Assembly (NCBI GenBank): GCA_050298595.1
Contig: JBNKUM010000094.1
Coordinates: 96,001-160,000, forward strand
Source: Gammaproteobacteria bacterium
Lineage (GTDB): Bacteria; Pseudomonadota; Gammaproteobacteria; GCA-001735895
Length of the DNA stretch: 64,000 bases
Direction: 5' to 3'
Part shown: piece after piece, positions 3-18,546 of the stretch
Position numbering within the stretch: position 1 is the first letter of the stretch
How the letters are laid out: every line of letters begins with the position of its first letter
The notes under the pieces: generated by a model
What the model saw: only the letters and a program-made list of their open reading frames with translations
Database searches by the model: none
Told to the model about the DNA's origin: nothing
Translations under genes and position numbers: made by a program

Positions 3-1274
3 ATTTCTGGAAATGTGAGCATTAACGCGATTGATCAGACACTGCCCCAGATCCTTAAAAGAATCTCTCGGCAAATTAGCTTACATTACTACATCGATGG
101 CCCCAACCTGGTAGTAGAACGAGATTTACCGTTTATGCGTAACTACCCGATCAATTATCTGAATATGGAAAGAGCCACCTCTTCGAAAGTAGAGATCTCA
201 TCCAAGATTTCTTCGACCGGATCAGGAACTGGTGGCGGTGGAGGTGGCGGTAGTGACTCTTCTACTGGTATCAGTAATAAGAGCGATAACAGCTTCTGGA
301 AGACCCTGGAGACTAATCTTGCCGCTATCGCTAGTAGTAATGGGGCTAAGGGTGTTGTCATTGTGAATAAAGAGGGTGGCATGATATCGGTAATGACCAC
401 TGCATCGAATCATGATTCCATTCAGGCTTTTATCGATCAGGTTATGTCCAGTGTACGCAAGCAGGTTCTAATCGAGGCAACAGTGGTAGAGGTTACGCTC
501 AGCGATGAGTTTCAGGCGGGTGTTGACTGGTCAAGAATTGTAAATGGTAATGGCTGGGATATTACACAGAGTACTCTGGGTGGTGCACTGGGAACAGCCC
601 CTTTTGTATCCGCAAGTTATTCTAATACCAGCTCAGGTAGTACGGTTACTGCAGCTATTAAAGCGCTTGATTCGTTTGGTGATGTATCCGTTATGTCTTC
701 CCCCAAGATCATGGCTTTAAATAACCAGACATCAATATTGAAGGTGGTAGACAACGCTGTTTATTTTAATTTTGATGTGAGTACGACTGTGAGTGATACG
801 GGAGTACCGAATACTACGTTTAATACAACGATAAATACTGTGCCTGTCGGCTTTGTCATGAATGTCACTCCTTTTATTACCTCTGACAATGAAGTGATAT
901 TAAACGTACGACCAACTATTTCCAGAATACTGGGGTATGTAAATGATCCTAATCCTGAGTTAGCAGCTGCAAATGTTGAGTCTCAAATCCCTCAGATACA
1001 GGTACGTGAGATGGAATCGGTATTACGAGTTGCAGATGGTGATACAGCAGTAATAGGTGGTCTTATGGAAAATAGTATTGATCAAAACAGTGCGGGTATC
1101 CCTGGATTGCATGACGTGAAAGGTGTCGGCGTCCTTTTTGGAACACAGGCAAAAAATACTAACAAGACTGAACTGGTGATTTTTCTAAGACCCAGAATTA
1201 TCGATAGCGCAAGCCTGAATAGCGATCTGACTGATTTTCAACGCTACCTTAAACCCCGGCTGTTAGCAGAATAG
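3..1274 (+). CDS. Secretin, MshL/GspD/PilQ family (5' end outside window)
   Basis: Secretin motifs QVLIEATVVEV, SSPKIMALNNQ and ELVIFLRP; Gly/Ser-rich N-domain linker typical of MshL; the frame stays open back to the window edge. Confidence 0.9.
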   Translation: MSGNVSINAIDQTLPQILKRISRQISLHYYIDGPNLVVERDLPFMRNYPINYLNMERATSSKVEISSKISSTGSGTGGGGGGGSDSSTGISNKSDNSFWKTLETNLAAIASSNGAKGVVIVNKEGGMISVMTTASNHDSIQAFIDQVMSSVRKQVLIEATVVEVTLSDEFQAGVDWSRIVNGNGWDITQSTLGGALGTAPFVSASYSNTSSGSTVTAAIKALDSFGDVSVMSSPKIMALNNQTSILKVVDNAVYFNFDVSTTVSDTGVPNTTFNTTINTVPVGFVMNVTPFITSDNEVILNVRPTISRILGYVNDPNPELAAANVESQIPQIQVREMESVLRVADGDTAVIGGLMENSIDQNSAGIPGLHDVKGVGVLFGTQAKNTNKTELVIFLRPRIIDSASLNSDLTDFQRYLKPRLLAE

Positions 1275-1296
1275 CTACAACCAACTGGGGATTGCT

Positions 1297-3315
1297 ATGA
1301 GCTTACTATTAGATGCATTGAAAAAAGCCGCCGAGAAGAAGGCGCAGAAAGATGCTGAAAGCAAGGCGGTAGAAAATACTGAAGTTCTAACCAGAACTCG
1401 GGTAACCAACGATAAAACCATCGCTGATGAAACGCTAGCGATGACTGAGACTGAGCTGGATGCAACTAGCATTGATGCGACTCAACTGGATAAAACCTCA
1501 GCGGATACGACTTTAAAAATAGGCTCGACTCAAGTTGATGCTACTCAAGCTGATCATGAGTCTACCCTGGAATTAGATATCAAAAATCTGGATTTATCAA
1601 AGCTAGCTGCTGAGGAAAATGAAGTTATTTTTGATTCAGGTGCAGATGACTCTCTCTCTTTTATTGATGAGGAAGAGGTGATAACCGATGATAAGGCAGA
1701 GGATGAAACCATAGTATTAACGCCTGATGACATCACCGATTTTTTGGGTGACGGTAATTACCCGAAACAGACGAAACCGGAAAAAGTTGTGCCTCCTCCG
1801 GTCAGGCATGAAATATCAGACGATACAACCTTAACGAATCCAGATGCCATAAGCCTGACAGATATTGATCGGGATAGCCTGGATCTGGAACCAGTGGTTG
1901 ATAAGGATTATTCGCAGGCTCAGGATTCAACCAGAACTGAATCAGCAAACTATAATTCTTACGATGGCATTTTGTCTCGGCAAGAAAGGGGCCGGGGCAC
2001 GTCTTCTTCAGTACAGCCTGGTGAAGGTAGTCAGTCGACGATGATGAATGCTGATAGCACTTCAGTGGATATAGAAAAGTTAACCAATGATGAAACAGTA
2101 ACCATCAAAGATAGTACGTTCACTCGTACTTTTGCACCTGACAATTATGACAGGACCTTGATGAAGCTCACGGATAATAACGTATCACGGATATTCTCGG
2201 GGATGAGGTCAGAAACTGATTCTGTGATGACGCCAGACTATGCAAAAAAGATATTTATCACCAAGTCACGAGGTGTTAAAAATTATTACTACAAGGTCTA
2301 TGCCGGTATTGCGCTGTGTATTTTACTTGTTGTGGTTGTCTGGGGACTGTTTGAGATTCAATCTGAATCTGAGTCAATCGATAATAGTTTGATTGCTTTA
2401 AAGAGAGATCCCATGCCGGGCGTGATTAAACCTAAAAGGCAGTCCGAGCCGGATAATCTATTTTTATCTGCGCCAAAGGTTGATAATAATGCGATAAAGG
2501 TTATTGAAAAAGCAAGTAAAGTTGCTGATGGTGTTTCCGGTGAAGTTCAACAGAAAGGTTCAGCTATACAGGCAGAAGATATAGGTGAGGTCGCTGTTCA
2601 AAGCGTATCGCCAAACGATTCGGTCGATTCTCTGGGTAGCCAGCAGTCGAAGTCACCTGCTGTGAAAGCAAAAGCAAATTCAGTAAAAAAACAGCCATCA
2701 GCTCAGTCTAAACAGGCATCGCTGCAAATTTCTTCAAATAAACGAGTTTCTGAAAAAGATCAGATATTAGCTGAGGCTTATGCCGCCTATGAAGCTGGAG
2801 ATATAGATAAGGCCAGAAGGCAATATCAACAGGTAATAGCTCTTGACCCCGAGAACAGGGATGCTCTGTTAGGTCGTGCTGCTATTTATGTTTTAGATAA
2901 TCAATTTGAGAGAGCTATTACTCTCTATCAGAAACTTTTGCTTGCTAATCCTAAGGATGATCTGGCAATGACTTCGCTTATCTCGGTTGCTAATGTTGAC
3001 CCACAAACAGGGGAGACAGAAATAAAGCGCCTGTTGAATGACTTACCTGAATCACCTTACCTGCATTTTGCTTTAGGTAATATGTTTGGAAATCAGAATC
3101 GTTGGGCAGAAGCTCAAACTGAATATTTTAAGGCGTTACAAATTAAACCCGAAGATCCAAACTATGCCTATAACATGGCCGTTAGTCTCGAGCATTTACA
3201 AAAGTCAGATTCTGCAATTACGTTTTATGAACGGGCATTAAAAAATAAAATAAATGGTTTGGCGACTTTCAGTGAATCTTTAGTGGTACAACGTATCGAG
3301 GTGCTGAGTCAGTGA
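1297..3315 (+). CDS. GspB/MshN-like membrane-anchored TPR protein
   Basis: N-terminal MSLLLDALKKA resembles the GspB/MshN N-terminus; long acidic region; one TM (AGIALCILLVVVVWGLF); C-terminal TPR repeats. Confidence 0.7.
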   Translation: MSLLLDALKKAAEKKAQKDAESKAVENTEVLTRTRVTNDKTIADETLAMTETELDATSIDATQLDKTSADTTLKIGSTQVDATQADHESTLELDIKNLDLSKLAAEENEVIFDSGADDSLSFIDEEEVITDDKAEDETIVLTPDDITDFLGDGNYPKQTKPEKVVPPPVRHEISDDTTLTNPDAISLTDIDRDSLDLEPVVDKDYSQAQDSTRTESANYNSYDGILSRQERGRGTSSSVQPGEGSQSTMMNADSTSVDIEKLTNDETVTIKDSTFTRTFAPDNYDRTLMKLTDNNVSRIFSGMRSETDSVMTPDYAKKIFITKSRGVKNYYYKVYAGIALCILLVVVVWGLFEIQSESESIDNSLIALKRDPMPGVIKPKRQSEPDNLFLSAPKVDNNAIKVIEKASKVADGVSGEVQQKGSAIQAEDIGEVAVQSVSPNDSVDSLGSQQSKSPAVKAKANSVKKQPSAQSKQASLQISSNKRVSEKDQILAEAYAAYEAGDIDKARRQYQQVIALDPENRDALLGRAAIYVLDNQFERAITLYQKLLLANPKDDLAMTSLISVANVDPQTGETEIKRLLNDLPESPYLHFALGNMFGNQNRWAEAQTEYFKALQIKPEDPNYAYNMAVSLEHLQKSDSAITFYERALKNKINGLATFSESLVVQRIEVLSQ

Positions 3316-5027
3316 AAACCGTACCCGGTACTAATAAGCCAAAAAGACTGGGCGAAATACTCATCGATGAAGGGGTTATCACCCCGGATCAATTAAATAT
3401 CGCGCTTACTGAACAAAAAAAAGTCGATTTGCCAATAGGTAAACTGTTGGTAAATCTGGGGTTTGCTACCGAATCTATAATGCGTTCAGCTCTAGGTGAA
3501 GCGCTAGAGCAGGACAGTGTTGATCTCTCCAGAGTAGTGCCTGATCCTGAGGCGATTAAGCTGATAGATTCAGACACTGCGCGTAAACACAAAGTTATCC
3601 CGCTTAATTACAATAGCATGACCGGCAGCTTAACCATCGCCATGTCGGATACTTTCAATCTATTCACGCTGGATCGTATTCGAATTCAGATTGGACAGCA
3701 TGTTGAAATCACACCAGTGCTGGCGGGTGAAACCGAGATTTCGAATGCCATAGATCAGTTCTATGGATATGAACTTTCAATTGATGGCATCCTGCGTGAA
3801 ATTGAAACTGGAGAAGCGGATTATACTAATTATCAGGGTGATATTGAAGAATACAGTCAGCCACTGGTAAGACTGGTGGATGTCATGATGGCCGATGCGG
3901 TAAAGCGAGGAGCCTCAGATATTCACTTTGAACCAGAGGAAAGCTTTCTACGTATCCGTTATCGAATTGATGGTGTATTGCGGCAGATCCGGAGTTTGCA
4001 TAAAACCTATTGGGCTGCAATAGCGGTACGGCTAAAGGTTATGGCGAATATGAATATTGCTGAAACTCGGGCTCCTCAGGATGGGAGGATTTCAAGAATA
4101 ATCATAGGTCGGCAGATTGATTTTCGTGTGGCATCCCAACCAACCATTCACGGTGAAAATATCGTTCTGCGTGTGCTGGACAGGGAAAAAGGGGTAATTC
4201 CTCTGGATGGGCTGGAACTACCCGATGCCTCGATGCGAATTTTGAAGATTATGATGGCTCGGCCTGAGGGGATAATTCTGGTAACCGGCCCGACGGGTAG
4301 TGGTAAGACAACTACGCTTTACTCGCTACTCAATCACATGAGTACAGAAAAAGTTAATATCATGACCCTGGAAGATCCTGTTGAATATCCTTTTCCATTG
4401 ATTCGGCAAACTTCAGTGAGTGATATGGCTGGGATGAATTTTGCTGACGGCATTAAGTCTTTAATGCGTCAGGATCCAGATATTATTCTGGTAGGTGAGA
4501 TTCGTGATGAAGATACTGCAGAGATGGCTTTTCGCGCAGCGATGACGGGGCATCAGGTCTATTCTACCTTGCATACAAATTCTGCCATTGGCGCGCTGCC
4601 TCGTTTAAGAGATATTGGTATTATGCCTGAAATTATGGCGGGTAATATTATTGGTGTCATAGCGCAACGCCTGGTGCGTAAATTGTGTAAATACTGTAAG
4701 GAGCCATATCATCCTGACGATTATGAGTTCAGGCTTTTATCAAATCCTGATGGCATCAGGCCCAATAAAATTTATCGCTCCAAAGGCTGCTCGGCCTGCG
4801 ATAACACGGGTTATAAAGGGCGTATGGCGCTGATGGAAATTCTCAAGATGAACTCTGAAATTGACGACATGCTGGCTCATGGTGCAACAACCAAAGAAAT
4901 AAAAGATGTGGCTTATCAACAGGGTTTTTTCACGCTTGCTGATGATGGAATTCGGCATGTTCTAAGCGGTGTGACTTCTATTGAAGAAATATCGCGAGTA
5001 ACTGACCTGACAGACAGGATGACCTAG
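3312..5027 (+). CDS. GspE/PilB/MshE-family assembly ATPase with N-terminal MshEN motif
   Basis: Walker A GPTGSGKTT, LEDPVE, Walker B DIILVGEIRD, STLHTN, CxxC..CxxC zinc motif; RLGEILIDEGVITPDQLNIALTEQ. Confidence 0.95.
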   Translation: MKTVPGTNKPKRLGEILIDEGVITPDQLNIALTEQKKVDLPIGKLLVNLGFATESIMRSALGEALEQDSVDLSRVVPDPEAIKLIDSDTARKHKVIPLNYNSMTGSLTIAMSDTFNLFTLDRIRIQIGQHVEITPVLAGETEISNAIDQFYGYELSIDGILREIETGEADYTNYQGDIEEYSQPLVRLVDVMMADAVKRGASDIHFEPEESFLRIRYRIDGVLRQIRSLHKTYWAAIAVRLKVMANMNIAETRAPQDGRISRIIIGRQIDFRVASQPTIHGENIVLRVLDREKGVIPLDGLELPDASMRILKIMMARPEGIILVTGPTGSGKTTTLYSLLNHMSTEKVNIMTLEDPVEYPFPLIRQTSVSDMAGMNFADGIKSLMRQDPDIILVGEIRDEDTAEMAFRAAMTGHQVYSTLHTNSAIGALPRLRDIGIMPEIMAGNIIGVIAQRLVRKLCKYCKEPYHPDDYEFRLLSNPDGIRPNKIYRSKGCSACDNTGYKGRMALMEILKMNSEIDDMLAHGATTKEIKDVAYQQGFFTLADDGIRHVLSGVTSIEEISRVTDLTDRMT

Positions 5028-5031: not shown

Positions 5032-6237
5032 ATGCCATTGTATAAATATAAAGCCATAGATAAGTCAGGTAAATTTATTCAGGGGAGTCTGGACGCGGGA
5101 AATATTGCCGATCTGGAATTACGCCTGGATAAAATGAGTCTCGATCTGATTACTTTCAAGCAGAAAGATCCCGGAGCAGATATTTTTGGACGCAATAAAA
5201 TTAAGCGTCGCGACCTTATTAACTTTAGCTTTCATCTTGAACAGTTAACCCGATCAGGCGTACCTATTCTTGATGGCTTGAAGGACTTGAGAGCCAGTGA
5301 AGAGAACCCTGGCTTCCGTGATGTCATTGCGAGTGTGATTGAAGCGATTGAGGGTGGTAATTCTTTCTCCAGGGCGTTAGCAATGTACCCCAAGGTGTTT
5401 GATGATGTTTTCACTAGCTTGATTAAGGTTGGAGAGCATAGCGGTAAAATGGCTGTAGTATTATCAGACATTACGGAAACTCTTAAATGGCAGGATGAGA
5501 TACTTGGCAAAGCGAAAAAAATCATGACTTATCCGGCTGTTATCGGTTCGTTGATTATGGCTGTTATTATGTTCCTGATGATTTTTATAGTACCGGACAT
5601 AATGAGTGCAATCGTTTCTCTGGGTGGAGAGATACCGCTGGAGACCAAAGCGCTTATGGCTGTGTCATGGTTCCTGGTTAATTACTGGTATCTAGTTATT
5701 GCTGTTCCTATAGCCCTGTTCTTCCTGATTAGGCATTTTTATAAAACTAATACTAAATTTCATTTCAAGATGGACGGCATTCTACTCAGGATTTGGCCCA
5801 TAGGTGATGTGAATGAAAAAATAAAAATCTCTCGTTTTACGCGATATTTCGCATTGATGTTTGCTTCTGGAATCACGGTTCTCGATGCAATCAAAATGAG
5901 TAAAGCTGTTGTTAGCAATCTGGTTCTGGAAGATGGTATTGATCGTGCCTGGGTACAGATTTCGGAAGGTGGTAGCATCAGTGAGAGCTTTCAGAATATA
6001 GGGATATTTCCTCCTCTGGTCATTCGAATGCTGCGTGTGGGTGAGTCTACCGGGCGTATGGATGAGTCGCTAAAAAATGTGAGTTATTTTTTTGAGAGAG
6101 ATATTAATGACCAGATTGATAAGCTTGAACCCGTGTTGCAAACATCGTTAATGGCCGCAATAGGTATTATCGTACTTTGGTTGGCGTTGTCAGTACTTGG
6201 CCCGATTTATGACACTATCAGCACCATAGACTTTTAA
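5032..6237 (+). CDS. GspF/PilC/MshG platform protein
   Basis: Two T2SSF repeats (SGVPIL, GEHSG, GESTGRMD), three TM segments, follows the ATPase. Confidence 0.93.
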   Translation: MPLYKYKAIDKSGKFIQGSLDAGNIADLELRLDKMSLDLITFKQKDPGADIFGRNKIKRRDLINFSFHLEQLTRSGVPILDGLKDLRASEENPGFRDVIASVIEAIEGGNSFSRALAMYPKVFDDVFTSLIKVGEHSGKMAVVLSDITETLKWQDEILGKAKKIMTYPAVIGSLIMAVIMFLMIFIVPDIMSAIVSLGGEIPLETKALMAVSWFLVNYWYLVIAVPIALFFLIRHFYKTNTKFHFKMDGILLRIWPIGDVNEKIKISRFTRYFALMFASGITVLDAIKMSKAVVSNLVLEDGIDRAWVQISEGGSISESFQNIGIFPPLVIRMLRVGESTGRMDESLKNVSYFFERDINDQIDKLEPVLQTSLMAAIGIIVLWLALSVLGPIYDTISTIDF

Positions 6238-6243: not shown

Positions 6244-7824
6244 ATGAAAAGAGTTCTCTACTTTACAGGATATAGAATGGTAGCCCAGGAGTGGTCTGGG
6301 CCGAAGCTGCTGAGTAGTGTTTATTTTGAGCCAGATGAGCAGGGGCTGGATTTATTTACGGCTTATCTCCAGTCACTTAAAAATGAACCAGTCCGACTGT
6401 TAATTGATTTAATCGAAGAAGAGTTTCGTCAGGTTAAAATACCGCTTCTCAGAGGTTCTGATCGGCAGGAGATTATAAATAGGAATTTTACCAAGTTTTT
6501 TAGAAACTCCGTGTATCGTCTGGCACGATCACAATCAGTTCAGAAAAAGGAAAGAAAAGAAGAGCATCTGTTGCTGATGGGGTTGACGAATCAATACATA
6601 CTAAAACCCTGGCTGCAAATAATAAATGATACTCGGACACCTTTATCTGGAATTTTAAGCCTGCCACTAATAAGTGAAGATTTTATTGCCCGTTTTAAGG
6701 GGGAGCATGAATGTGTCATTCTCGTTACTCAACAGGTACCCAGCAATCTCCGTCAATCCGTTTTCATAAAAGGTAAATTAATTCTTAGTCGTCTGGTTCC
6801 GATAGCCAGTTTCTATCAGGGTGATTATGCCTCGGATGTTGTTCGTGATGTTGAAGGTACACAGCGTTACCTCTTTAGCCAGAGAATAATCGATCGTACC
6901 GATGTGATATCAGTGCATATACTGTGTAATCAACGGCATAAAGATAAACTGGCTGTAAAATGTTCCGGGGATGAATATTTTGACTATCACATACATGATG
7001 TAAATGATGTTATTGAGCAGGAAAAAATAGAACTCAAGGAGGAGCAGGATTTTAGCTCAGTTTTATTTTGCTATCATGCCTCAAAAAAACTGCTAGTTAA
7101 TCATTATGCGAATACCTCTGAAAAAAAATATTTTTATCATCAGCTTGCTGCTGTTAGTGGCAAAGTAATTGGTATGATATTAATCGCAACAGCTGTCGGG
7201 CTTTTTACTACCGCCTTCATAAAGGGTGTCTTATATGGAAGTACTGTTAATGAAATGCAGCTGGTCGAACAGAAATATAAGTCAAAATTTAATCAGCTTT
7301 CAGAGAGTCGAATCGACTCCAGTACTAGCACTACTACCATGCAGTCCGTTGTTAATACAGTAGAACAGATTGAAAAAAAATATCAAACCCGTCCAAGAGA
7401 TCTTCTGGTTAAAATCAGTCAGCACATATCGTTATTTAATGCGCTCAGGTTAAAAAAATTAGATTGGTTTATTTCCAATTCTCCAGATTCTAAATCTATT
7501 AGCGAGGTGTCCTGGGGTGGTGGGAATGCTCGAAGAGGCTCAAGGTCGCGAGCAGGGAATGCCCTGTATGAAATTGCCATATTATCTGGAGAATTCCTTG
7601 AGTTTGATGGAAATTACAGATATGTGTTGAGCGCTATCGATGATCTGGAGGATGCAATGAAAGTATCGAATGAGTATGACTCTGTTACTATTTTAAAGCG
7701 TCCTCTGGATATAGAACCAGAAAACAAATTATCTGGTGATGCAGGTGCTAATGCAGGCGTCGGAAATAACAGAGCTGAGTTTTCCATACGCGTTGTGAGA
7801 AAGGTAAGCATTGATGAAAAATAA
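6244..7824 (+). CDS. GspL-like (PilM+PilN-like) alignment protein
   Basis: About 300 aa soluble N-terminal part, one TM, coiled-coil periplasmic part; position in the operon. Confidence 0.55.
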   Translation: MKRVLYFTGYRMVAQEWSGPKLLSSVYFEPDEQGLDLFTAYLQSLKNEPVRLLIDLIEEEFRQVKIPLLRGSDRQEIINRNFTKFFRNSVYRLARSQSVQKKERKEEHLLLMGLTNQYILKPWLQIINDTRTPLSGILSLPLISEDFIARFKGEHECVILVTQQVPSNLRQSVFIKGKLILSRLVPIASFYQGDYASDVVRDVEGTQRYLFSQRIIDRTDVISVHILCNQRHKDKLAVKCSGDEYFDYHIHDVNDVIEQEKIELKEEQDFSSVLFCYHASKKLLVNHYANTSEKKYFYHQLAAVSGKVIGMILIATAVGLFTTAFIKGVLYGSTVNEMQLVEQKYKSKFNQLSESRIDSSTSTTTMQSVVNTVEQIEKKYQTRPRDLLVKISQHISLFNALRLKKLDWFISNSPDSKSISEVSWGGGNARRGSRSRAGNALYEIAILSGEFLEFDGNYRYVLSAIDDLEDAMKVSNEYDSVTILKRPLDIEPENKLSGDAGANAGVGNNRAEFSIRVVRKVSIDEK

Positions 7825-11146: not shown

Positions 11147-11905
11147 ATGAATCAAAACGCCGCTGGTTTTACCCTGATAGAAGTTTCCCTGGTTTTACTG
11201 ATTGTGACTATCCTGCTAGGGTATTCACTTGGGGTGTATCCAGTGCAGCAGGAGTTGAAACAATACAGAGCAGCCCAAACTGAAATGGATTCCATTATCC
11301 AGCGCCTGTTATATTTCGCCGAGATTAATGGCCGTTTACCCTGTCCTGATACTAGTACCGGCGGTACTGTAAATGGTCAGGAAGATCTAAATGGCCCTGG
11401 AAAATGTAGATCTATATATGCTTATCTACCGGGCAGAGATCTGGGAATGCAGGGCAACTACGATTCAAACAATCGCTTACTCGATCCCTGGGGGCAACCG
11501 TATAGGTATGGTGTTTCAAGTTCTACCAGTAATGCGGCGGATAATTTTGTTGATCGGAATCAGATTCGAGCTCAGGGTGTTGATGGAATGAATGGTGATA
11601 TTTTTATCTGTGATGATAGTAACACTACCGGTGCTAATGCAAACTGTTCAACAGTATCCGGCAATGAAGTGATGAGTCGTGTTGCAGCGATTGTAGTTTC
11701 TACCGGTAAGGACAGGGGGCGTACTCCCACTTCCAATATACAGGCTGAGAATCAGGATAACTTTAATAATTCATCGACTGCAGATCATGTCTACATATAT
11801 GCTCAACGTAGTGATGCTAGTGGTGCTGAATATGATGATCTGGTCAAGTGGTTACCTACAAACCTTTTACTATCAAAGCTTATCGAAGCGGGCCAGCTGC
11901 CCTAA
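11147..11905 (+). CDS. Prepilin-type minor pilin, paralogue of 10373..11131
   Basis: AG/FTLIEVSLV; shares PVQQELKQYR, NGRLPC, LDPWGQPYRY and (F/Y)DD(V/L)VKW with its neighbour. Confidence 0.9.
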   Translation: MNQNAAGFTLIEVSLVLLIVTILLGYSLGVYPVQQELKQYRAAQTEMDSIIQRLLYFAEINGRLPCPDTSTGGTVNGQEDLNGPGKCRSIYAYLPGRDLGMQGNYDSNNRLLDPWGQPYRYGVSSSTSNAADNFVDRNQIRAQGVDGMNGDIFICDDSNTTGANANCSTVSGNEVMSRVAAIVVSTGKDRGRTPTSNIQAENQDNFNNSSTADHVYIYAQRSDASGAEYDDLVKWLPTNLLLSKLIEAGQLP

Positions 11906-11920: not shown

Positions 11921-13603
11921 TTATTCACCTATATGTTGAAACAGGCTAAAGCAAACCCTGCCCTTTTCATTGCTTGCTAATTCCAGCTCAAAATTAAAAG
12001 ACCTTGCCATAATTGCCGATTGATACAGGCCTATACCCATGCCTTCGCCTGAGGATACGGGTTTTATAAAAAGGTTACTTTCGAGGTCTGCTTTCACCTG
12101 ACTTCCATTGTCACACACTGTGACAACTATCATTTCAGTGTTGGCAGTAATATCAATGATTACCTGGCTGACCTCATTTTTATTTTGAGTGTTCGATAAC
12201 AGGTTGTTGATGACACTATCAAATAATTCACAGGGGATGGCATGGTTAAGGCTGATATCCTGATTAACGATTAACCATGGGTAGCTATGTTCAGATTGAA
12301 AGCGCTTAAGCCAGTCCTTAATACTGATGATTTTGATGGATGTTGATATCTCCGGTGATTTTAGCTTTTCAAGGGTTGACTCAAGTCTACTGCTAATCTG
12401 ATCCAGGTTTTGCCTAAGTAGTTTATTGGATTTTTGTTTTTTGTCATCTGAAGTGGCTTGCACAATATCAAGAGAGGTTTTAATGGACTGCAGAATATTT
12501 TTTATGTCATGCGTCAATCGGGCGCCGGTGTGGTGAATGGTTTCAAAATGCTCCTCAGCGCGTATTTTATCCTGATTCAATTTGGCTAGATAAAATTGAT
12601 AAGCCATTCGAATCAGGAGAATAGTATGTTGTCGTAAAGCTTTTCCTGGGTCGGATTTGAAGTAAATGGTGACTAAAATTTGTTCCGATAGCTGGTGACG
12701 GAATACGGCGCCATTTCTGGGGCCTGATGCAATGGTAAAGCCTTTGAATTGCCATTGAATTCCATTTAGCCAATCGTTTTCAATCAAGTGTTCACAGGCT
12801 GCCTGTAAGAATTCAGATGCTGATATATAGGGCTCTTCTATCAGTGTGGTTAAGGTGTTTATCCAGATTTCAAAAGGCCCTCCAATAGTCATTGCGTAAC
12901 GGTTCCAGAGCACTCCCAGACCTGAATAACCAACGCCAGGGTTCCAGAACCAACTGATACCGATGGAAAGTGTTGATACAATGAAAACCGTTAAAAGCAG
13001 CCCATCGAGGTAGTCAACACCATATAAAAGGTTGATCACTATACCGCCGAGTAAGGCAAGGAATATTAATGTAGCGGTTAGCAGACCATGCATAAACTCT
13101 ATCTGACTGCGCGGTTGCTGTGTTCTATCAGGGCTAGGGGCAAAGAAAAACCCCAGGATTGGGATTAATAACAGGGTTTGAATTAATGAGGTAAATTGAA
13201 CAGGAAGATTAATTTGCGCAAAGGTATCCGGGATGATGCCAATCGCCATCTCAATGATTAGAATAGACATGGCAAGTAAATCAAAAGCTCTTGAAGTATT
13301 CTGGCTAAATAAACGGCTTCCAAGAAGTCCAGAAACAATCAGGCTGAACAGGATGAGTGATTCGTTTTGATAGTAATAACTGAAAGTTAGCAGCAATATT
13401 ATTAGTATAAAGGATGGAAGTGTATTGATTTTTGTGTCTTTTCCCCATAATGGTTGCCACATAAAAAATAAACCATATAGTACTAACACCATCGAAAACT
13501 GGATAAACTTGTCTGAAAATGTCCAGGTGAGACTGTGAAGTAAAAGTAATATGGAGGCAAGTATTTGCTGCTCTAATACTATTAATAAGTTAACTAGCTT
13601 CAT
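11921..13603 (-). CDS. Multi-TM sensor histidine kinase (PrsK-like H-box)
   Basis: About 7 N-terminal TMs, H-box THDIKNIL, N-box NLLSN, DNG, G2 GEGMGIGLYQS. Confidence 0.85.
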   Translation of the reverse strand: MKLVNLLIVLEQQILASILLLLHSLTWTFSDKFIQFSMVLVLYGLFFMWQPLWGKDTKINTLPSFILIILLLTFSYYYQNESLILFSLIVSGLLGSRLFSQNTSRAFDLLAMSILIIEMAIGIIPDTFAQINLPVQFTSLIQTLLLIPILGFFFAPSPDRTQQPRSQIEFMHGLLTATLIFLALLGGIVINLLYGVDYLDGLLLTVFIVSTLSIGISWFWNPGVGYSGLGVLWNRYAMTIGGPFEIWINTLTTLIEEPYISASEFLQAACEHLIENDWLNGIQWQFKGFTIASGPRNGAVFRHQLSEQILVTIYFKSDPGKALRQHTILLIRMAYQFYLAKLNQDKIRAEEHFETIHHTGARLTHDIKNILQSIKTSLDIVQATSDDKKQKSNKLLRQNLDQISSRLESTLEKLKSPEISTSIKIISIKDWLKRFQSEHSYPWLIVNQDISLNHAIPCELFDSVINNLLSNTQNKNEVSQVIIDITANTEMIVVTVCDNGSQVKADLESNLFIKPVSSGEGMGIGLYQSAIMARSFNFELELASNEKGRVCFSLFQHIGE

Positions 13604-13636: not shown

Positions 13637-14416
13637 GTGTTTTCACAAACTATAGCATTGTTTAGATATTTACTGAGCGGTCTTATAAATACTCGGTTAT
13701 TAATACTATTGCTGGGTATTACTCTTACAGGCATTTTGTCAGGCCAATATATTTCTGAATTAGCTATCATCAATAGCAAACTTATCGGATTGGCTTTTAC
13801 TGCTGAGTTGTTGCGTTACTGCCTTTTGTTTTTCATGGTCGTCTCTATAGCCTATCGTATCTCTCAAGATTATGAGCTTGGTCAATTTGATCGATTGTTG
13901 TCTATGCCTATCACAAGAGCTCAGTATGTTTTTTCCCAACTATTAGTCATTCTAACTGCCGGGTTTATATTTTCGATTCCAGTCATTGTCTCTATGCCTT
14001 TTTTTGCGTCATTTCCACTGGCGGTATACTGGTTTTTATCGGTTTATCTGGAGTTGATACTGATAGGTCTGTTTACAATGCTGGCTATTCTGAGCCTGGA
14101 AAAATTGCCAGTAGCTATTATTTTTAGTGTTGCAGCCTATTTGCTATCAAGATTAATTCCACAGATTAATAGCGCTCTCGAACAATCTGTTGATTATTAC
14201 TCTGATGAAGTGACTTTCAGGTTTTCTGAATATCTGTTTAAGTTATTACAGTATGTTTTACCAACCTCGAGCTCTTTTGCACAAAATAATATATTGTTTG
14301 AGCTGGTTGTTAACTGGGAAAATCTTATCGAACAATCTCTGTCTGTTTTTATTTATGGTGGATTCTTGTTATTTATCAGTTTGATTGATTTTTATCGAAA
14401 GGAATTTAATCATTGA
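13637..14416 (+). CDS. ABC-2 type permease (PilI/Xap-like)
   Basis: About 6 TMs, LLSMPITRAQY motif, C-terminal DFYRKEF. Confidence 0.8.
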   Translation: MFSQTIALFRYLLSGLINTRLLILLLGITLTGILSGQYISELAIINSKLIGLAFTAELLRYCLLFFMVVSIAYRISQDYELGQFDRLLSMPITRAQYVFSQLLVILTAGFIFSIPVIVSMPFFASFPLAVYWFLSVYLELILIGLFTMLAILSLEKLPVAIIFSVAAYLLSRLIPQINSALEQSVDYYSDEVTFRFSEYLFKLLQYVLPTSSSFAQNNILFELVVNWENLIEQSLSVFIYGGFLLFISLIDFYRKEFNH

Positions 14417-15141
14417 GAAATAATTCCTACCGAAGCGTTAAACAGGTTCCATTGCTAATCCTATGCATGGCAGTGTTTTTCATGCTACTTCAATTAGAGT
14501 TGAGCATTAAGCAAAAAGAAAATAATAAGTATTCTTTTCAGCAATTAACTAAGCCTCAAAATGTAGACTTTTACAGGATGATCTCGTTAGGCTCGAATCG
14601 GTTGATGAGTTATCTGTTAGCGATAGGTCTTCAATTACATGATAATCAAAAGGGTAAGCATGTCTCTTACTCACGTCTTGATTATGATTTTCTTAGCCAA
14701 TGGTTGCGTACTGTTTACTTGCTTAATCCTGACTCTGAATACCCCGCTTTTTTAGCCTCTAGAGTTTATAGTCAGGTAAAAGAAAAAAATAAAGTAAGAT
14801 TAATGATTCAACAGATAGAGTTGATGTTCGAATCAAACCCGCAGAAGTTTTGGCGTAGAATGACTGAAGCCTGTTTGCTAGCCAAACATCAGCTTAAAGA
14901 CCTGGATCTGGCGCTTAATCTCGCGAAGCAGATTTCATCATTACCACAGTCAATAAAAATGCCGTTTTGGGCAAGAGATATGAAGCTGATATTACTGGAT
15001 GAACTTGATCAGAACGAATCGGCTGCACTGTTAATCGTGAGCCTGTTACAAAGTGGTCAAATTATAGATACAGATGAGAAAAGATTTTTAGAATTCAGGC
15101 TGTCGAAAATTAAACAGAAGATGTCTGAATTTGGACAGTGA
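14413..15141 (+). CDS. Membrane-anchored helical (TPR-like) protein, possibly PilG/XapA-like
   Basis: N-terminal TM and all-alpha body; coupled to the permease gene. Confidence 0.5.
   Translation: MRNNSYRSVKQVPLLILCMAVFFMLLQLELSIKQKENNKYSFQQLTKPQNVDFYRMISLGSNRLMSYLLAIGLQLHDNQKGKHVSYSRLDYDFLSQWLRTVYLLNPDSEYPAFLASRVYSQVKEKNKVRLMIQQIELMFESNPQKFWRRMTEACLLAKHQLKDLDLALNLAKQISSLPQSIKMPFWARDMKLILLDELDQNESAALLIVSLLQSGQIIDTDEKRFLEFRLSKIKQKMSEFGQ
15101..15137. promoter_or_regulatory. Tandem TGT-N10-ACA enhancer-like sites
   Basis: TGTCGAAAATTAAACA (15101-15116) and TGTCTGAATTTGGACA (15122-15137), 21 bp apart, upstream of a sigma54 motif. Confidence 0.5.
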
Positions 15142-15200: not shown

Positions 15201-15216
15201 TGGTATATTATATGCA
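15201..15216 (+). promoter_or_regulatory. sigma54 (-24/-12) promoter of the pilin gene
   Basis: TGGTATATTATATGCA = GG-N10-GC, 30 bp before the ATG, which has a GGAG RBS. Confidence 0.65.
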
Positions 15217-15245: not shown

Positions 15246-15857
15246 ATGAATACATTTAAGAATAAAGGTTTTACACTAGTTGAGATAGCGATAGTTCTGG
15301 TCATTGTTGGACTGTTGATAGGTGGTGTACTAAAAGGTCAGGAAATGATCACAAATGCAAAGCTAAAGCGTATCGAGTCTGATAATGCGGGTATCGCAGC
15401 GGCGATGTTTTCCTATCAGGATCGTTACCTGCAATTACCAGGAGATGATAGTGCTGCTTCCTCAAGATTTGATGTTACAGTGGTTGGTGATGGGGATGGG
15501 AATGGCATAATCGGAAGTGGGAATGACTGGGCATCTTCCGATTCTGCTGCTGAAACATCACTTTTTTGGTCTCACTTGCGTGCTGCAGGTCTAGTAGCGG
15601 GTAATGCAGCAGATACCACCAGGCCTTCTAATGCTTATGGAGGTAAGATTGGAGTTCAGGATGGTTTTGGCACTATATCAGGGCATGTCACGGTATTCGG
15701 TCAAATTGAAGGACCCATCGCAAAAATCCTTGAAGCTCGACTTGATGATGGCAGTCCTGCGACGGGAAGAATGCAGGGTCGAAAAACTTCAGATGCTGCT
15801 TTAAGTGTAACTGCATATACTGATAGTGAACGTTTTAATCTAGGCTTTCGTTTGTAA
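15246..15857 (+). CDS. Probable major pilin/pseudopilin
   Basis: KG/FTLVEIAIVLVIVGLLIGGVLKGQEMI; own promoter, strong RBS, 3' hairpin. Confidence 0.85.
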   Translation: MNTFKNKGFTLVEIAIVLVIVGLLIGGVLKGQEMITNAKLKRIESDNAGIAAAMFSYQDRYLQLPGDDSAASSRFDVTVVGDGDGNGIIGSGNDWASSDSAAETSLFWSHLRAAGLVAGNAADTTRPSNAYGGKIGVQDGFGTISGHVTVFGQIEGPIAKILEARLDDGSPATGRMQGRKTSDAALSVTAYTDSERFNLGFRL

Positions 15858-15883: not shown

Positions 15884-15902
15884 ACCCGCCACTGTGGCGG
15901 GT
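15884..15902 (+). terminator. GC-rich hairpin after the pilin gene (attenuator or mRNA stabiliser)
   Basis: ACCCGCCA-CTG-TGGCGGGT with only a weak U tail, 4 bp before the next ATG. Confidence 0.55.
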
Positions 15903-15906: not shown

Positions 15907-16620
15907 ATGATTAAAATCGATAAATTACAATTTTCATACAATTCCCATTCAGTTCTGAATAGCCTGTCGTTACTTATTGAAAAAAACCATTATTTCGCCT
16001 TAGCTGGATTGAATGGTGCGGGTAAGACCACTCTTATTCGTTTAATAGTGGACTTGTTAAGGTCTCCGAATAAATCCGATATACAGATTAACGGGCTCAG
16101 TAGCTGGCGTGTTGATAGCAGAAAGAGTCTGATCTACCTGCCTGAGAAATTCAAACTTAGCTCAAATACTACTGCACTGGAATATTTTAAGTTGCTATCA
16201 GGCGTGTATCGGCAAAACCTTGATCGAAAGAAACTTGAATTCCTTTGCGGCCAGTTAGATTTCCCTGTTGACTCATTGGCTAAAAGGTCAGCAACCTACT
16301 CAAAGGGTATGCTACAAAAGGTGGGATTAATGGGCTGTTTTATTCTGGATTTACCTATTATGTTGCTTGATGAGCCTTTGAGTGGTCTAGACCCAAAGGC
16401 AAGACTCCAGGTAAAAAAACTTCTGTTAGAAGAAAAGAAAAAAACTAGCAAAACACTATTTTATAGCACCCATATGCTTTCGGATGTTGATGAGCTTTGT
16501 GATAGCTTCGGTATTTTGCATAACGGTAGCTTAAAGTTTCTCGGTACCCCTATGGATTGCCTGTCAACTTATGAGTCTGACACTCTTGAGCAGGCATACA
16601 TGAAGTGCATTGAAGCGTAG
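15907..16620 (+). CDS. ABC transporter ATP-binding protein (PilH-like)
   Basis: GLNGAGKTT, YSKGM signature, LLDEPLSGLDP, STH. Confidence 0.92.
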   Translation: MIKIDKLQFSYNSHSVLNSLSLLIEKNHYFALAGLNGAGKTTLIRLIVDLLRSPNKSDIQINGLSSWRVDSRKSLIYLPEKFKLSSNTTALEYFKLLSGVYRQNLDRKKLEFLCGQLDFPVDSLAKRSATYSKGMLQKVGLMGCFILDLPIMLLDEPLSGLDPKARLQVKKLLLEEKKKTSKTLFYSTHMLSDVDELCDSFGILHNGSLKFLGTPMDCLSTYESDTLEQAYMKCIEA

Positions 16621-16632
16621 CAAAGCTCTGCT

Positions 16633-18546
16633 TTAAGGATCAGGCTTTTCGTAAGACTTCTTTTTCTCCATTAAATGTTCAACTAGTGCTGCCTTTTTTT
16701 CAGCTAATAGTTCGATGTGCTCCTGGTTGCTTTCACGGGCAAGAATTTTCTCAGCAAAGTTGTAAAAATCGAGGGTTGTCTGGTTACTCATATGCCAGTA
16801 TCTAATGGCTTTAAATACTACATCTGCAGCTTTCTCAGTCTCTCCCCGGCTCAGGTAGAGAGAGGCAAGATCACGTGAAGCCGGTAAAAAGCGAGGGTTG
16901 GTTTCCAGGCATTTCTGGTAATATCGAGTGGCTTTCAGCTTCCAGTGTCCACTGGAGAGTAGTGGCATTTGTTCATAGAGGCTGGCCTGAAGATAATCGG
17001 CAGCTTCACGATGAGGATTAATCTGTCTGGCTTTGTTAAGGTATTCCAGAGACTTATCGTATAGGAGTTGTTTTTTCTGATCGGTCAGTTCGGTATCTTT
17101 TTCCAGTATTGACAGAAATGTCTGAACATAAAAAAGGTATGGCCGATCATCGTATGGGTATATGCTCATTGCGCTAGAGACTAATGTATCAGCTTCTGTA
17201 ATCTTTCCCTCTAAATAAGCCTGTTCGCCTTTAACGTAAAGATGACTGAAGGTGCTAATAATGGAAAAGTAGACTGTGTAAACGATAAAAATGGCCCCAA
17301 TGGTTAAGCCAAAGATGGATTTTCGAATGGGAATTAGGTCGAGAAAGACAGCAGGTTTTGTATATTTGCTAATTTCAAGGAAGCGCCCTAGTAATAAACC
17401 AATAAGATAAAGAACGCAAAAAACACCTAAATTAAAACTGAAAAAAGAGTGGAACCCAATAGCAGTTATACCCGCTATTAAGCCTGATGCTTCGATTTTT
17501 CTACTGACCTCAATCTCTTTATTCTGTATATATATCCACCAGTAATAGAGAATGGCAAGCATGATCATTAATAAAAATGCCAGACCGGGTACTCCAGTTT
17601 CAATCAGATACTGCAAATAGTCATTATGAGCATTGAGTCCCGCACTCGGATCGTTGATCTGGCGATAGGCAGGATATGTTAACCAAAAGGTACCAATTCC
17701 TCCTCCATACCAGGGCGTATCCTTAAGCAAGTTAATGGCGCCTTCCCAAATCTCACGTCTACCTAGATCGGCCTCCTCTATTTTGTATTCAAAAAAACGG
17801 AGTAAGTTGCTGGTTAATAGTGTGGCTGAAATTATTGCAGTTAGATAGATGGCCAGGTACTGATTGACTACCTTCCGAGTTAAGTGTTGTCTGCCGGCGA
17901 AAAAAATCATGATTAGCCCAATTATTTGACCGGCAGTAGCTCCTCGGCTACCAGGGAGGGCATGACTAAATTCGAGTGCGAACAGGGCGATACCTAAGAA
18001 TAGCCTGGTATTTCCTTTTGGTGATAATAAGAAATACGCGCTGGTAGGTAAGATGATTAAATTGAGGTAAGACGCGTGTGTATTTTTATTAAAAAATAGA
18101 GAATTTGGTGGGTTGATTCCTAGATATACTTCAATGCAGCTGTAAATAAAAAGGATTATTCCTGCAGCAATGACAGACCACCAGATTTTTTCCCAGCTTA
18201 AGGTGTTATTTGTGATCAGGAAGTAACTATATAAACCAACAACTGATGCGCTGATAGTGATTGCGCGTAACAGACTAATGGCTGGAACATCGCTCCAGAA
18301 AACGGTTAGAAAACACCAAAAAGTAAATAGTACAACAAGTAAGCTGATAGGTGGTTTCGGCAGAATTAGGTTTTTTTTATAGTTCCTGTAGATGGAATAA
18401 AGTAATAAACTAAAAGCACTAAATGCGGCTGGGCCAAACCAGAAAAGATCGCCCCCTTGCCATATAATTCCCAATATTAGTGTGATAAATATAATTAGAG
18501 AGTGGGCATATTTTGAGGCTGTATTTTCAAATAGTGTTTTAATCAT
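16633..18546 (-). CDS. O-antigen ligase / PglL-like O-oligosaccharyltransferase with C-terminal TPR
   Basis: About 12 TMs, SRG motif, Wzy_C motif NAHNDYLQYLIETG, TPR-like tail. Confidence 0.8.
   Translation of the reverse strand: MIKTLFENTASKYAHSLIIFITLILGIIWQGGDLFWFGPAAFSAFSLLLYSIYRNYKKNLILPKPPISLLVVLFTFWCFLTVFWSDVPAISLLRAITISASVVGLYSYFLITNNTLSWEKIWWSVIAAGIILFIYSCIEVYLGINPPNSLFFNKNTHASYLNLIILPTSAYFLLSPKGNTRLFLGIALFALEFSHALPGSRGATAGQIIGLIMIFFAGRQHLTRKVVNQYLAIYLTAIISATLLTSNLLRFFEYKIEEADLGRREIWEGAINLLKDTPWYGGGIGTFWLTYPAYRQINDPSAGLNAHNDYLQYLIETGVPGLAFLLMIMLAILYYWWIYIQNKEIEVSRKIEASGLIAGITAIGFHSFFSFNLGVFCVLYLIGLLLGRFLEISKYTKPAVFLDLIPIRKSIFGLTIGAIFIVYTVYFSIISTFSHLYVKGEQAYLEGKITEADTLVSSAMSIYPYDDRPYLFYVQTFLSILEKDTELTDQKKQLLYDKSLEYLNKARQINPHREAADYLQASLYEQMPLLSSGHWKLKATRYYQKCLETNPRFLPASRDLASLYLSRGETEKAADVVFKAIRYWHMSNQTTLDFYNFAEKILARESNQEHIELLAEKKAALVEHLMEKKKSYEKPDP

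Follow-up and report, generated by a model that had tools for sequence, protein, structure and literature searches.

Sequence comparison indicates that the gene cluster opening the window (the whole 64-kb stretch of DNA analysed here) is one copy of a widespread MSHA-related type IV filament family of Gamma- and Betaproteobacteria. The locus is an uncharacterised variant of MSHA-type machinery, and a new class of machine is not evidenced. We consider it likely that the cluster encodes an MSHA-related type IV filament machine in which pilin is polymerised by an MshE-like motor, with an adhesive pilus as the most likely output. The genes that the first-pass annotation had listed are all present where it placed them, and its reading of the cluster as a second filament beside a type IVa pilus (T4aP) holds as well: the parts are MSHA- or T2SS-like, their order is non-canonical, the cluster has minor pilins of its own, and the separate T4aP minor-pilin operon at 25.3-32.3 kb is real. 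The features of the locus are as follows.

3..1274, plus strand: MshL-type secretin, truncated at its 5' end because the window starts inside the gene (Pfam Secretin 1.9e-38, Secretin_N_2)
1297..3315, plus strand: bitopic TPR protein of 672 aa in the MshN position (TPR families at residues 450-650)
3312..5027, plus strand: MshE-like extension ATPase (T2SSE 8e-125; MshEN 7e-18)
5032..6237, plus strand: inner-membrane platform protein of the GspF/PilC/MshG family (T2SSF 1.8e-46, two repeats)
6244..7824, plus strand: PilM-PilN fusion of 526 aa, GspL/MshI-like (by AF2 fold; no family match)
7811..8416, plus strand: N-terminally anchored protein of 201 aa in the PilO/GspM/MshJ position (N-terminal TM segment)
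8379..8846, plus strand: exported protein of 155 aa in the MshK/PilP position (N-terminal hydrophobic segment)
8856..10373, plus strand: Cys-rich pilin-like protein of 505 aa without Glu5, the family hallmark
10373..11131, plus strand: minor pilin of 252 aa with GspG-like traits (N_methyl 9e-6)
11141..11905, plus strand: 254-aa paralogue of the 252-aa pilin (N_methyl 6e-5)
11921..13603, minus strand: convergent histidine kinase of 560 aa with about 7-9 membrane segments (HATPase_c 2e-7)
13637..14416, plus strand: ABC-2-type permease candidate of 259 aa (by look-alikes; at least 5 hydrophobic segments)
14413..15141, plus strand: membrane-anchored helical (TPR-like) protein of 242 aa from an unnamed family, its gene overlapping the permease gene by 4 nt
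15201..15216, plus strand: sigma-54-type -24/-12 element, GG-N10-GC, TGGTATATTATATGCA, 30 nt before the pilin ATG
15246..15857, plus strand: candidate major pilin (ORF opens at TTG 15234; ATG 15246 follows GGAG; N_methyl 1e-6)
15884..15902, plus strand: terminator-like hairpin just 3' of the pilin gene, by consensus match only (8-bp stem, 6 GC pairs, T-rich tail)
15907..16620, plus strand: ABC transporter ATPase of the ABC-2/DrrA-like subgroup (ABC_tran 6e-18)
16633..18546, minus strand: Wzy_C+TPR protein (Wzy_C domain 64.1 bits against 31.7)

The core of this locus, comprising the secretin, the TPR protein, the ATPase, the platform, the PilM/N fusion, two small membrane proteins and three related minor pilins, is a conserved cluster. 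Its gene order is constant across the 55 related loci with at least 9 kb of upstream sequence; the secretin, ATPase, platform and 526-aa protein are each present in 54 of them, the TPR protein in 52 and the 201-aa protein in all 55. The 155-aa protein is recognisable in 16/55, and a small ORF takes its slot in the others. Relatives of the 505-aa pilin-like protein could be confirmed at 541 of the 547 candidate stretches taken from species-level genomes. Iron- and sulfur-oxidising lithotrophs that carry the family include Gallionellaceae, Woeseiaceae, Chromatiaceae and large sulfur bacteria, and Gallionellaceae loci make up 12 of the 80 relatives. To our knowledge, nearly all that is known of MSHA pili comes from Vibrio, Aeromonas, Shewanella and Pseudoalteromonas; the related family is encoded at hundreds of sites in the species-level genomes of Gamma- and Betaproteobacteria from the environment, many of which are uncultured and oxidise iron or sulfur.

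The secretin reaches the equivalog cut-off for MshL (NCBIfam TIGR02519, 253.9 bits against 250.2). Scored with the same profile, relatives give 251.0, 242.9 (just under 250.2) and 264.2, and Aeromonas MshL itself gives 279.1; a family secretin HMM finds Aeromonas MshL at 2e-75. Similarly, family HMMs match the TPR protein, whose single hydrophobic segment lies at residues 334-352, to Aeromonas MshN (4e-13) and the platform to Aeromonas MshG (2e-94). The ATPase carries the N-terminal c-di-GMP motif (57.1 bits on NF053729, cut-off 38). Specifically, residues 12-35 are an exact fit to the published motif I, and motif II fits its relaxed form save for the last residue, where it is degenerate. With PilB at 517 bits against 675.65 and GspE at 511 against 630, the ATPase has the sub-threshold pattern of Aeromonas and Legionella MshE. 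A type IVa pilus was rejected as an assignment on this PilB score and on the PilQ score of the secretin (109 against 284.35); no second T2SSE-family ORF was found among the ORFs scanned in the 64-kb window.

The first-pass annotation had also reported several absences. The lack of an MshM/ExeA gene is at best a window-edge artefact, because the window begins inside the secretin gene, and an MshM-like AAA gene lies just upstream of the secretin in 23 of the 42 relatives with at least 900 bp of upstream sequence available. On TIGR03015, the upstream AAA genes of relatives score 153-220 bits and Aeromonas MshM 232.6; in the two nearest relatives, the upstream ORF is truncated and has no similarity. 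The MSH model of TFF-SF (Denise et al. 2019) has mshA, E, G, L and M as mandatory genes. The remaining absences were borne out: the further ORFs of the window that were scanned, 28 with 120 aa or more plus 7 others, gave no match to PilT or to a prepilin peptidase, no Gsp H-K family match completes a GspG-H-I-J-K series, and no mshBACD/OPQ set is recognisable. Consistent with descriptions of MSH, the system sits in a single locus without a prepilin peptidase in it.

The 526-aa protein has no Pfam, NCBIfam or PDB sequence match. Its AF2 model (pLDDT 83.4) matches PilM (4.5e-10), the cytoplasmic domain of EpsL/GspL (1e-8) and FtsA in Foldseek, so that the predicted fold is that of PilM/GspL; the protein has one TM segment (303-321) and weak sequence matches to MshI2 (E 6e-4 to 7e-3). 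The 201-aa and 155-aa proteins have no Pfam or NCBIfam family match. For the former, the position of the gene suggests a PilO/GspM/MshJ role, and weak profile matches point to GspM (E 0.017) and MshJ (0.02); the latter weakly matches MshK of Aeromonas (E 0.005) and, over the same stretch, its Legionella counterpart (0.014).

Of the three paralogous minor pilins described, the 252- and 254-aa proteins are 44% identical (E 2e-64); the 505-aa protein shares only its first ~110 residues with them (E 1e-4). The 505-aa protein has 221 database relatives, every one unnamed, in which the G preceding the hydrophobic helix and some 10 Cys are conserved. Its AF2 model (pLDDT 83.5, pTM 0.84; N-terminal helix of 54 residues) has no PDB fold match at E<=0.001, and nothing is shared with MshO/P/Q past the first ~20-30 N-terminal residues. 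The family offers a 500-aa pilin-like protein that is confidently modelled and has no structural relative. The 252-aa pilin matches the GspG profile TIGR01710 (3e-10) at 40 bits, below the cut-off of 88.85, and it or its 254-aa paralogue occurs in 47/47 loci. The candidate major pilin, cysteine-free and 203 aa long in its database form (P0123), has more than 7,000 relatives, the best 120 of which are 61-84% identical over the full length. It is found in 35/47 loci, often duplicated. Since the other 12 have no nearby copy and the GspG-like 252-aa pilin is universal, the 203-aa pilin is a candidate major subunit only. Family pilin HMMs match Aeromonas MshB/A/C/D/O in the N-terminal helix alone (E 1e-3 to 4e-8), and past that helix the locus holds no counterpart of the major pilin MshA or of the MshB/C/D/O/P/Q set.

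Downstream of the minor pilins, the locus carries an accessory cassette. The C-terminal part of the kinase shows a weak likeness to PrsK (60 bits, cut-off 300), its hydrophobic segments lie within residues 3-220, and a minus-strand kinase is found in 14/47 loci. The 259-aa protein has no Pfam or NCBIfam match, and its language-model look-alikes (Atlas) are ABC-2 permease clusters (0.95-0.98). This permease candidate is present in 14/47 loci, as is the 242-aa helical protein, which never occurs apart from it, has 184 relatives, all "hypothetical", and resembles TPR-like Atlas clusters (0.87-0.89, to be taken as a lead only). The ABC ATPase scores 110 bits for DrrA and 96 for GldA, all under the cut-offs. 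Clear orthologues (161-255 bits) follow the pilin in L001, L002, L003, L008, L010 and L061; the weaker match in L030 is an LptB-position ATPase between lptC and rpoN, and that in L025 is probably of this type too, judged by its similarly low score. Altogether, kinase, permease, helical protein and pilin recur in synteny beside the core in 13/47 loci, in both Gamma- and Betaproteobacteria, which bears out in part the proposal that the accessory genes are conserved together; the ABC ATPase does so in only ~5/47. Because a true ABC ATPase adjoins the pilin in so few loci, the filament, contrary to the claim made for it, does not generally require an ABC exporter.

A sigma-54-driven pilin had also been proposed. 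The -24/-12-like element is present, and a strict-consensus scan of the window gave no match at 15201-15216. In 13/50 pilin genes, a TGG-N10-GC element with at least 8/11 consensus positions precedes the G-1 codon by 66-104 nt, and the kinase is present in 9 of the 11 related loci with such an element (12 loci counting the window). No response regulator for the kinase is found in the locus, and no PilR-like dedicated sigma-54 activator is adjacent to kinase or pilin; the adjacent ntrC, the partner of ntrB, scores as a true NtrC (717 bits against 558.6). The Woeseiaceae-type locus L047, for its part, is flanked by genes for sigma-54 activators.

Among the closest known systems is the MSHA pilus of Vibrio and Aeromonas (mshHIJKLMNEGF-BACDOPQ). 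The likeness consists of an MshL-type secretin at the equivalog cut-off, an MshE-type ATPase with the MshEN c-di-GMP motif, an MshG-type platform, a TPR gene following that of the secretin, a gene for an MshM-like AAA protein (present in relatives), and a single locus without prepilin peptidase or retraction ATPase. The differences are these: the order is (M)-L-N-E-G followed by I/J/K-like genes instead of I-J-K-L-M-N-E-G, the MshI counterpart is one fused protein, MshH and MshF are missing, the pilins are unrelated past the N-terminal helix and include three "GRLPC" pilin-like proteins, the 505-aa protein among them, and a kinase/ABC cassette is added. The family offers a natural case of a c-di-GMP-type pilus motor paired with a different pilin set. 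The ATPase is 36% identical to Aeromonas MshE and belongs to a separate clade. In the tree that had been proposed as a check, the family ATPases form their own clade on a long stem (SH-aLRT 100, length 1.19) and, with only two MSH references included, do not join MshE in the free tree; the AU test did not reject a tree that holds them together with these two MshE references (p-AU 0.44, delta lnL 0.59).

The family is little characterised and conserved, and the gene cluster itself is already in print as a rearranged MSH homologue. In the part of the paper available to us, Emerson et al. (2013; PMC3770913) describe MSH homologues of Sideroxydans ES-1 and Gallionella ES-2 with "significant gene rearrangement" relative to Vibrio and P. 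tunicata, the homology being stated there without data shown or functional work. The ES-1 and ES-2 clusters probably belong to the same family as the window locus. As a gene cluster, then, the system had been described before, since such clusters were named rearranged MSH homologues in Gallionellaceae genome papers. Of the claim of a distinct, little-characterised class, what holds is that the family is conserved and that its ATPases form a separate clade.

The same genes can be read in other ways. The machine might be type II secretion-like, with a short periplasmic pseudopilus, built mainly of the GspG-like 252/254-aa pilins, pushing a substrate through the secretin and with the 203-aa pilin as an accessory or alternative subunit. 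The GspG match of the 252-aa pilin and its universal presence, the single PilM-PilN fusion as a GspL, the GspM profile as best weak match of the 201-aa protein, the cysteine-free 203-aa pilin, and the lack of a retraction ATPase among the ORFs scanned in the window all agree with this reading; an ATPase/platform/secretin core is likewise shared with the type II system. However, the equivalog cut-offs of GspD (151 against 351), GspE and GspF (280 against 424) are unreached while that of MshL is reached, GspC and the GspH-I-J-K set are missing, and the 203-aa pilin, with its promoter-like element, hairpin, duplications and very many close relatives, looks like a major pilin. In addition, no conserved candidate substrate gene was found in the flanks (56 ORFs from 10 loci). 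We therefore regard a secretion machine as unlikely. Similarly unlikely is a further proposal, namely that the family branches off separately within the type IV filament superfamily, as a sister of MSH. The Cys-rich 500-aa protein would then be a tip pilin of new fold, the multi-pass kinase would sense the membrane pilin pool and set sigma-54-dependent pilin transcription, and a dedicated ABC-2 transporter with its novel helical partner would handle, at the inner membrane, either pilins or a polymer exported along with them. If true, the spread among iron- and sulfur-oxidising lithotrophs would point to attachment to mineral or host surfaces.

The remaining readings concern the genes around the pilin. 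The first-pass annotation had favoured a distinct filament class in which the pilin needs the ABC exporter and the Wzy_C protein O-glycosylates it. Wzy_C-family enzymes include pilin O-oligosaccharyltransferases, the Wzy_C gene lies 13 bp from the ABC ATPase gene, its domain score is clear, and ABC genes stand on either side of the pilin gene. Yet relatives of the Wzy_C protein are found in 0/80 related loci (phmmer E<=1e-4) and a Pfam scan detected none among the 56 flank ORFs, its gene runs on the opposite strand, 16 bp after ntrC and co-oriented with glnA-ntrB-ntrC, and its only PDB relative is a WaaL-type ligase (E 0.0016). Moreover, in L001-L003, the closest relatives with the ABC/ntrC junction, the ABC gene is directly followed by ntrC, and the ABC ATPase is itself rare beside the pilin. 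The Wzy_C gene is not part of the pilus locus, and a TfpO/PglL-type pilin O-oligosaccharyltransferase coupled to the pilin was rejected. Pilin glycosylation is unsupported because of the 0/80 count and the co-orientation with ntrC, and this reading as a whole is very improbable. It would also take much to believe that the cassette is an unrelated neighbour that landed in the locus, such as a transporter for small-molecule efflux or for immunity that has a sensor of its own. Of the 47 loci, 33 are without the cassette, its ABC ATPase is as similar to DrrA and lantibiotic-protection ATPases as to anything else, and the cassette has no detectable homology to pilus proteins; against this, it keeps a constant slot between the minor pilins and the 203-aa pilin, with order and orientation kept, in all 13 loci and across two classes, and the sigma-54-like element occurs mostly in kinase-bearing loci.

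For the MSHA-related pilus machine that we prefer, the following mechanism can be proposed. The MshE-like ATPase, whose MshEN motif probably puts it under the control of c-di-GMP, would drive the platform to polymerise pilin. The PilM-PilN fusion, the PilO/GspM-like 201-aa protein and the small periplasmic 155-aa protein would link this motor to the MshL secretin, whose assembly may be helped by the TPR protein and probably by an MshM-like AAA protein whose gene would lie just beyond the window edge. The three related pilin-like proteins (505, 252 and 254 aa) would prime or cap the fibre. Its bulk would consist of the 203-aa pilin, whose gene would be transcribed from a sigma-54-type promoter of its own and has a hairpin behind it. 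In this lineage, the cassette of multi-pass kinase, ABC-2 permease, helical protein and ABC ATPase probably controls the supply or handling of pilin in the membrane. The most likely output would be an adhesive, biofilm-promoting pilus.

A possible precedent for such a cassette exists in Myxococcus xanthus, where the pilin promoter is likewise of the sigma-54 type. In the pilS/pilR-pilA-pilGHI region of that organism (PMC6060248 for PilGHI), a kinase, an ABC ATPase, an ABC-2 membrane protein and one protein that belongs to no known family also surround the major pilin gene, so that our cassette is probably comparable, in layout alone, to PilS plus PilGHI. The M. xanthus system, unlike ours, is a T4aP with PilT, and no PilR-like activator is adjacent here. 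If the analogy holds, the locus would add an independent second case to the association of ABC transporters with pilin genes, which is still unexplained in Myxococcus. The Gallionellaceae loci examined are without the permease/helical/ABC cassette, and some of them carry a response regulator, another kinase-like gene and two pilin copies instead.

The locus at the start of the window is an MSHA-related type IV filament locus, where MSHA (or MSH) is the mannose-sensitive haemagglutinin pilus system of Vibrio and Aeromonas. It belongs to a widespread subfamily and carries a lineage-restricted kinase/ABC cassette. The first-pass annotation had proposed a new filament class here, and listing the ORFs and scanning them for families confirmed all of the genes that it named. 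A distinct T4aP minor-pilin operon, which it placed at 25-32 kb, also proved real in the family scan (25.3-32.3 kb).

3-1274, + strand: secretin, truncated by the window edge
1297-3315, + strand: TPR protein, 672 aa
+ strand: ATPase with T2SSE and MshEN domains
+ strand: platform protein (T2SSF)
+ strand, after the platform gene: 526-, 201- and 155-aa proteins, without family match
+ strand, 3' of the 155-aa gene group: 505-aa pilin-like protein
+ strand, after the 505-aa gene: two pilins, 252 and 254 aa
minus strand, convergent to the pilin genes: histidine kinase, 560 aa
+ strand, after the kinase gene: 259-aa membrane protein
+ strand, 4-nt overlap with the 259-aa gene: 242-aa helical protein
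+ strand, after the helical-protein gene: pilin (203 aa), then ABC ATPase
16633-18546, - strand: Wzy_C+TPR membrane protein
beyond the Wzy_C gene: ntrC, ntrB and glnA, scoring as true housekeeping genes
25362-32290, - strand: complete T4aP minor-pilin operon (FimU/GspH-like, PilV-like, PilW, PilX, 1289-aa PilY1, ComP/PilE-like)

The secretin and the ATPase bear MSHA-type markers. The secretin reaches the NCBIfam MshL equivalog cut-off (253.9 vs 250.2); on the same model, three full-length relatives score 251.0, 242.9 and 264.2, and Aeromonas MshL scores 279.1. The ATPase passes the MshE-related c-di-GMP motif model (57.1 vs 38), and its residues 12-35 are an exact fit to the 24-residue c-di-GMP motif described in PMC5013675, while a second motif fits the relaxed form given there save at the last position. 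The product would most likely be an adhesive, c-di-GMP-controlled pilus. The main rival is a T2SS-like role for the machine: the 252- and 254-aa pilins do give a sub-threshold GspG match. Against it, the secretin lies far under the GspD cut-off (151 vs 351). It is likewise far under that of PilQ (109 vs 284). The ATPase is under both the PilB and the GspE cut-offs with near-equal scores (517 and 511), and the MshE proteins of Aeromonas and Legionella show the same score pattern as the window ATPase.

The MSH model of Denise et al. (PMC6668835) has mshA, E, G, L and M as mandatory genes and describes MSH loci as single and without a prepilin peptidase; the window locus is likewise single and has no prepilin peptidase. 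The window starts inside the secretin gene, so the count of MshM-like genes rests on relatives, 23 of 42 of which (those with enough sequence) encode an AAA_22 protein upstream of the secretin, scoring 153-220 bits on TIGR03015 (Aeromonas MshM, 232.6). The two closest relatives show just a truncated upstream ORF that could not be recognised as any known gene, and the one in L001, a related locus, had no similarity to the MshM-like protein of another such locus, L003.

The family also differs from MSHA in several respects. Its HMMs detect Aeromonas MshL, MshN, MshE and MshG, whereas the match to Aeromonas pilins is confined to the N-terminal helix, and in the family the I/J/K-like genes come after (M)-L-N-E-G. 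The family ATPases form their own clade in a 36-row tree (SH-aLRT 100, stem 1.19), and the two MshE references pair apart from it with support 99, the deep forks being unresolved. An AU test, with two MSH references only, did not reject a topology holding the family and MshE together (p 0.44). The MSH clade is thinly sampled because the references came from a plasmid collection, whose only matches were a chromosome of Aeromonas that had been filed as a plasmid, one plasmid of Legionella and a fragmented match in Vibrio.

To describe the extent of the subfamily, we used the 505-aa protein, which has 221 database relatives, every one unnamed. An alignment of 24 of these was used to scan a single genome for each species, and 541 of the 547 candidate stretches proved to encode a relative. 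The locus comparison covers 80 of the 541, labelled as Gammaproteobacteria (37), Betaproteobacteria (33), without class (8) or probably mis-binned contigs (2); Gallionellaceae account for 12 of the 80. Three loci (L005, L013 and L016) come from MAGs labelled Polaribacter, Planctomycetota and Gemmatimonadales, and these contigs are probably mis-binned, since their genes are 33-50% identical to the gammaproteobacterial ones of the window.

HMMs built from the related loci, with ORF calling that gave priority to ORFs bearing matches, show a fixed core gene order. Among the 55 loci that extend 9 kb or more upstream of the 505-aa gene, the secretin, ATPase, platform protein and 526-aa protein were each found in 54, the TPR protein in 52 and the 201-aa protein in all 55. 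The 155-aa protein was recognised in 16 of the 55, a small unmatched ORF occupying its slot in others. The single upstream exception is L065, in which the minor-pilin genes are placed separately. Downstream, a 252/254-type pilin is present in all 47 loci with at least 6 kb beyond the 505-aa gene.

Several core proteins could be placed through structure or position. The model of the 526-aa protein (24-row alignment, pLDDT 83.4) combines an actin-like N-terminal domain with a single membrane helix and a small domain at the C terminus. By structure it comes closest to PilM (4.5e-10), the EpsL/GspL cytoplasmic domain (1e-8) and FtsA, and from these matches the protein is predicted to be a PilM-PilN fusion of the GspL/MshI kind; a search against PDB sequences gave no match at E<=1. 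The 201- and 155-aa proteins each have an N-terminal anchor and align weakly (hhalign, E 0.005-0.02) with the GspM/MshJ and MshK profiles, and we infer their roles from position. The 505-aa protein gave a confident model (pLDDT 83.5, pTM 0.84) that pairs a pilin-type helix of 54 residues with a large domain, for which no PDB fold matched at E<=0.001. The 252- and 254-aa pilins have the first ~110 residues of this protein in common with it, GRLPC motif included, and share 44% identity with one another. The TPR protein measures 672-755 aa in the window locus and the two relatives nearest to it, and 363-528 aa in other relatives; in the long form, a 330-residue N-terminal part precedes the membrane segment as an extra domain without family match.

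The kinase/ABC cassette has a narrower distribution than the core. The permease candidate and the helical protein occur in 14 of the 47 loci whose downstream sequence is long enough, and in 13 of the 47 they stand together with the kinase and a 203-aa-type pilin, in the same order and orientation and in both classes. The ABC ATPase HMM matches 8 of the 47. Clear orthologues follow the pilin in L001, L002, L003, L010 and L061, and also in L008, which has less flank; L025 and L068 score 54 and 22 bits. The match in L030 is taken to be LptB, located between lptC and rpoN, and not the cassette ATPase. In this Burkholderiales-type locus (16629-21767), the genes after the cassette and pilin are, in turn, one for a SIS/CBS-domain protein, lptC, the ABC ATPase gene just mentioned and rpoN, such that the sigma-54 gene is itself a neighbour of the cassette.

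The 259-aa protein is a candidate ABC-2 permease, as judged by language-model look-alikes (0.95-0.98). The look-alikes of the helical protein are TPR-like and below 0.9, and a profile search with its alignment for a named PilG link detected 184 members of an unnamed family, all 'hypothetical', with no named relative among them; an Undibacterium strain also carries this family. A complex prediction for the two proteins scored 0.32, and one control scored 0.37. In layout, the cassette resembles the pilA region of Myxococcus, with its kinase gene and its PilGHI ABC genes (PMC6060248). No Geobacter-type pilA-ABC neighbourhood was found on a Geoalkalibacter plasmid.

Other genes were seen near these loci. 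In L010, a repeat protein of the cadherin-like/Big_9 type, longer than 1,450 aa and with 14 repeats (17174-21526, - strand), directly follows the ABC ATPase gene and runs off the locus; it may be an adhesin neighbour. Two loci without the cassette carry regulators: in L014 (Gallionella, 12088-13949), a protein with a receiver domain and a kinase-like ORF of 428 aa lie between minor and major pilins, and L047 (Woeseiaceae, 2-571 and 14641-17025) has beside it an HDOD protein as well as sigma-54 activators, one of which contains a GAF domain.

The candidate major pilin, 203 aa in its database form, starts at an ATG at 15246 preceded by GGAG, lacks cysteine and is followed by a GC-rich hairpin. 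Of 47 loci, 35 have this pilin close to the core, several of them in duplicate. Across 49 orthologues, the N-terminal 50 residues are 68% identical (median) and the C-terminal domain 36%; PDB sequences matched only in the N-terminal helix (E>=0.14). A strict sigma-54 scan of the window (TGGCAC-N5-TTGC, 1 mismatch) gave nothing near the pilin and 1 match elsewhere vs 4.7 expected. A looser GG-N10-GC element lies at 15201-15216, and 13 of 50 pilin genes have a similar one, matching the consensus at 8 or more of 11 positions, 66-104 nt 5' of the G-1 codon. These genes belong to 12 loci including the window, and the kinase is present in 9 of the 11 related ones; seven other kinase-bearing loci have no comparable element. 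L001 has two 203-aa-type pilin genes (16478-17137 and 18311-18982), each with a near-consensus TGGCA(C/T)-N5-ATGCT 67 nt before the G-1 codon.

The proposal that the pilin is glycosylated through the Wzy_C protein found no support. No relative was detected in the 80 related loci, nor any Wzy_C protein when 56 ORFs flanking 10 loci were scanned with Pfam. At the corresponding junction in L001-L003 the Wzy_C gene is absent, and ntrC directly adjoins the ABC gene. In the window the gene starts 16 bp downstream of ntrC (717 bits vs a cut-off of 558.6 in the family scan) and is co-oriented with glnA-ntrB-ntrC. Among solved structures its product has a single relative, a WaaL-type ligase (E 0.0016). 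The most plausible reading of the gene is an insertion specific to this lineage, without connection to the pilus.

Related clusters have been noted before. Emerson et al. 2013 (PMC3770913) mention MSH-homologous clusters in Sideroxydans ES-1 and Gallionella ES-2 (data not shown), significantly rearranged relative to Vibrio and P. tunicata, and a 2023 paper (PMC10734482) refers to an 'MSHA pilin cluster' in Gallionellaceae MAGs. Our literature searches found no functional study, and one on MSHA-like clusters in Betaproteobacteria gave no paper that matched 4 of its 5 terms.

Elsewhere in the window, the T4aP minor-pilin operon has as its neighbours an ORF with a TusA domain (24013-24495) and a ThiI/NFACT-R protein. 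Further features are as follows.

46257-50348, - strand: 966-aa hybrid sensor kinase (dCache, HAMP, PAS, HisKA, receiver) and periplasmic binding protein
50988-63463: autotroph gene set (RuBisCO large chain, CbbQ, VWA (CbbO-like) protein, phosphoribulokinase)
52642-53268: PEP-CTERM protein
58639-61326: 895-aa MtrC/MtrF-like multihaem cytochrome

The first of these has a GC content of 0.53-0.56 vs about 0.44 elsewhere in the window; an Rfam scan of the whole window gave no match, and therefore this high-GC stretch at 46-50 kb is not rRNA. A Dyp peroxidase is also encoded within 50988-63463.
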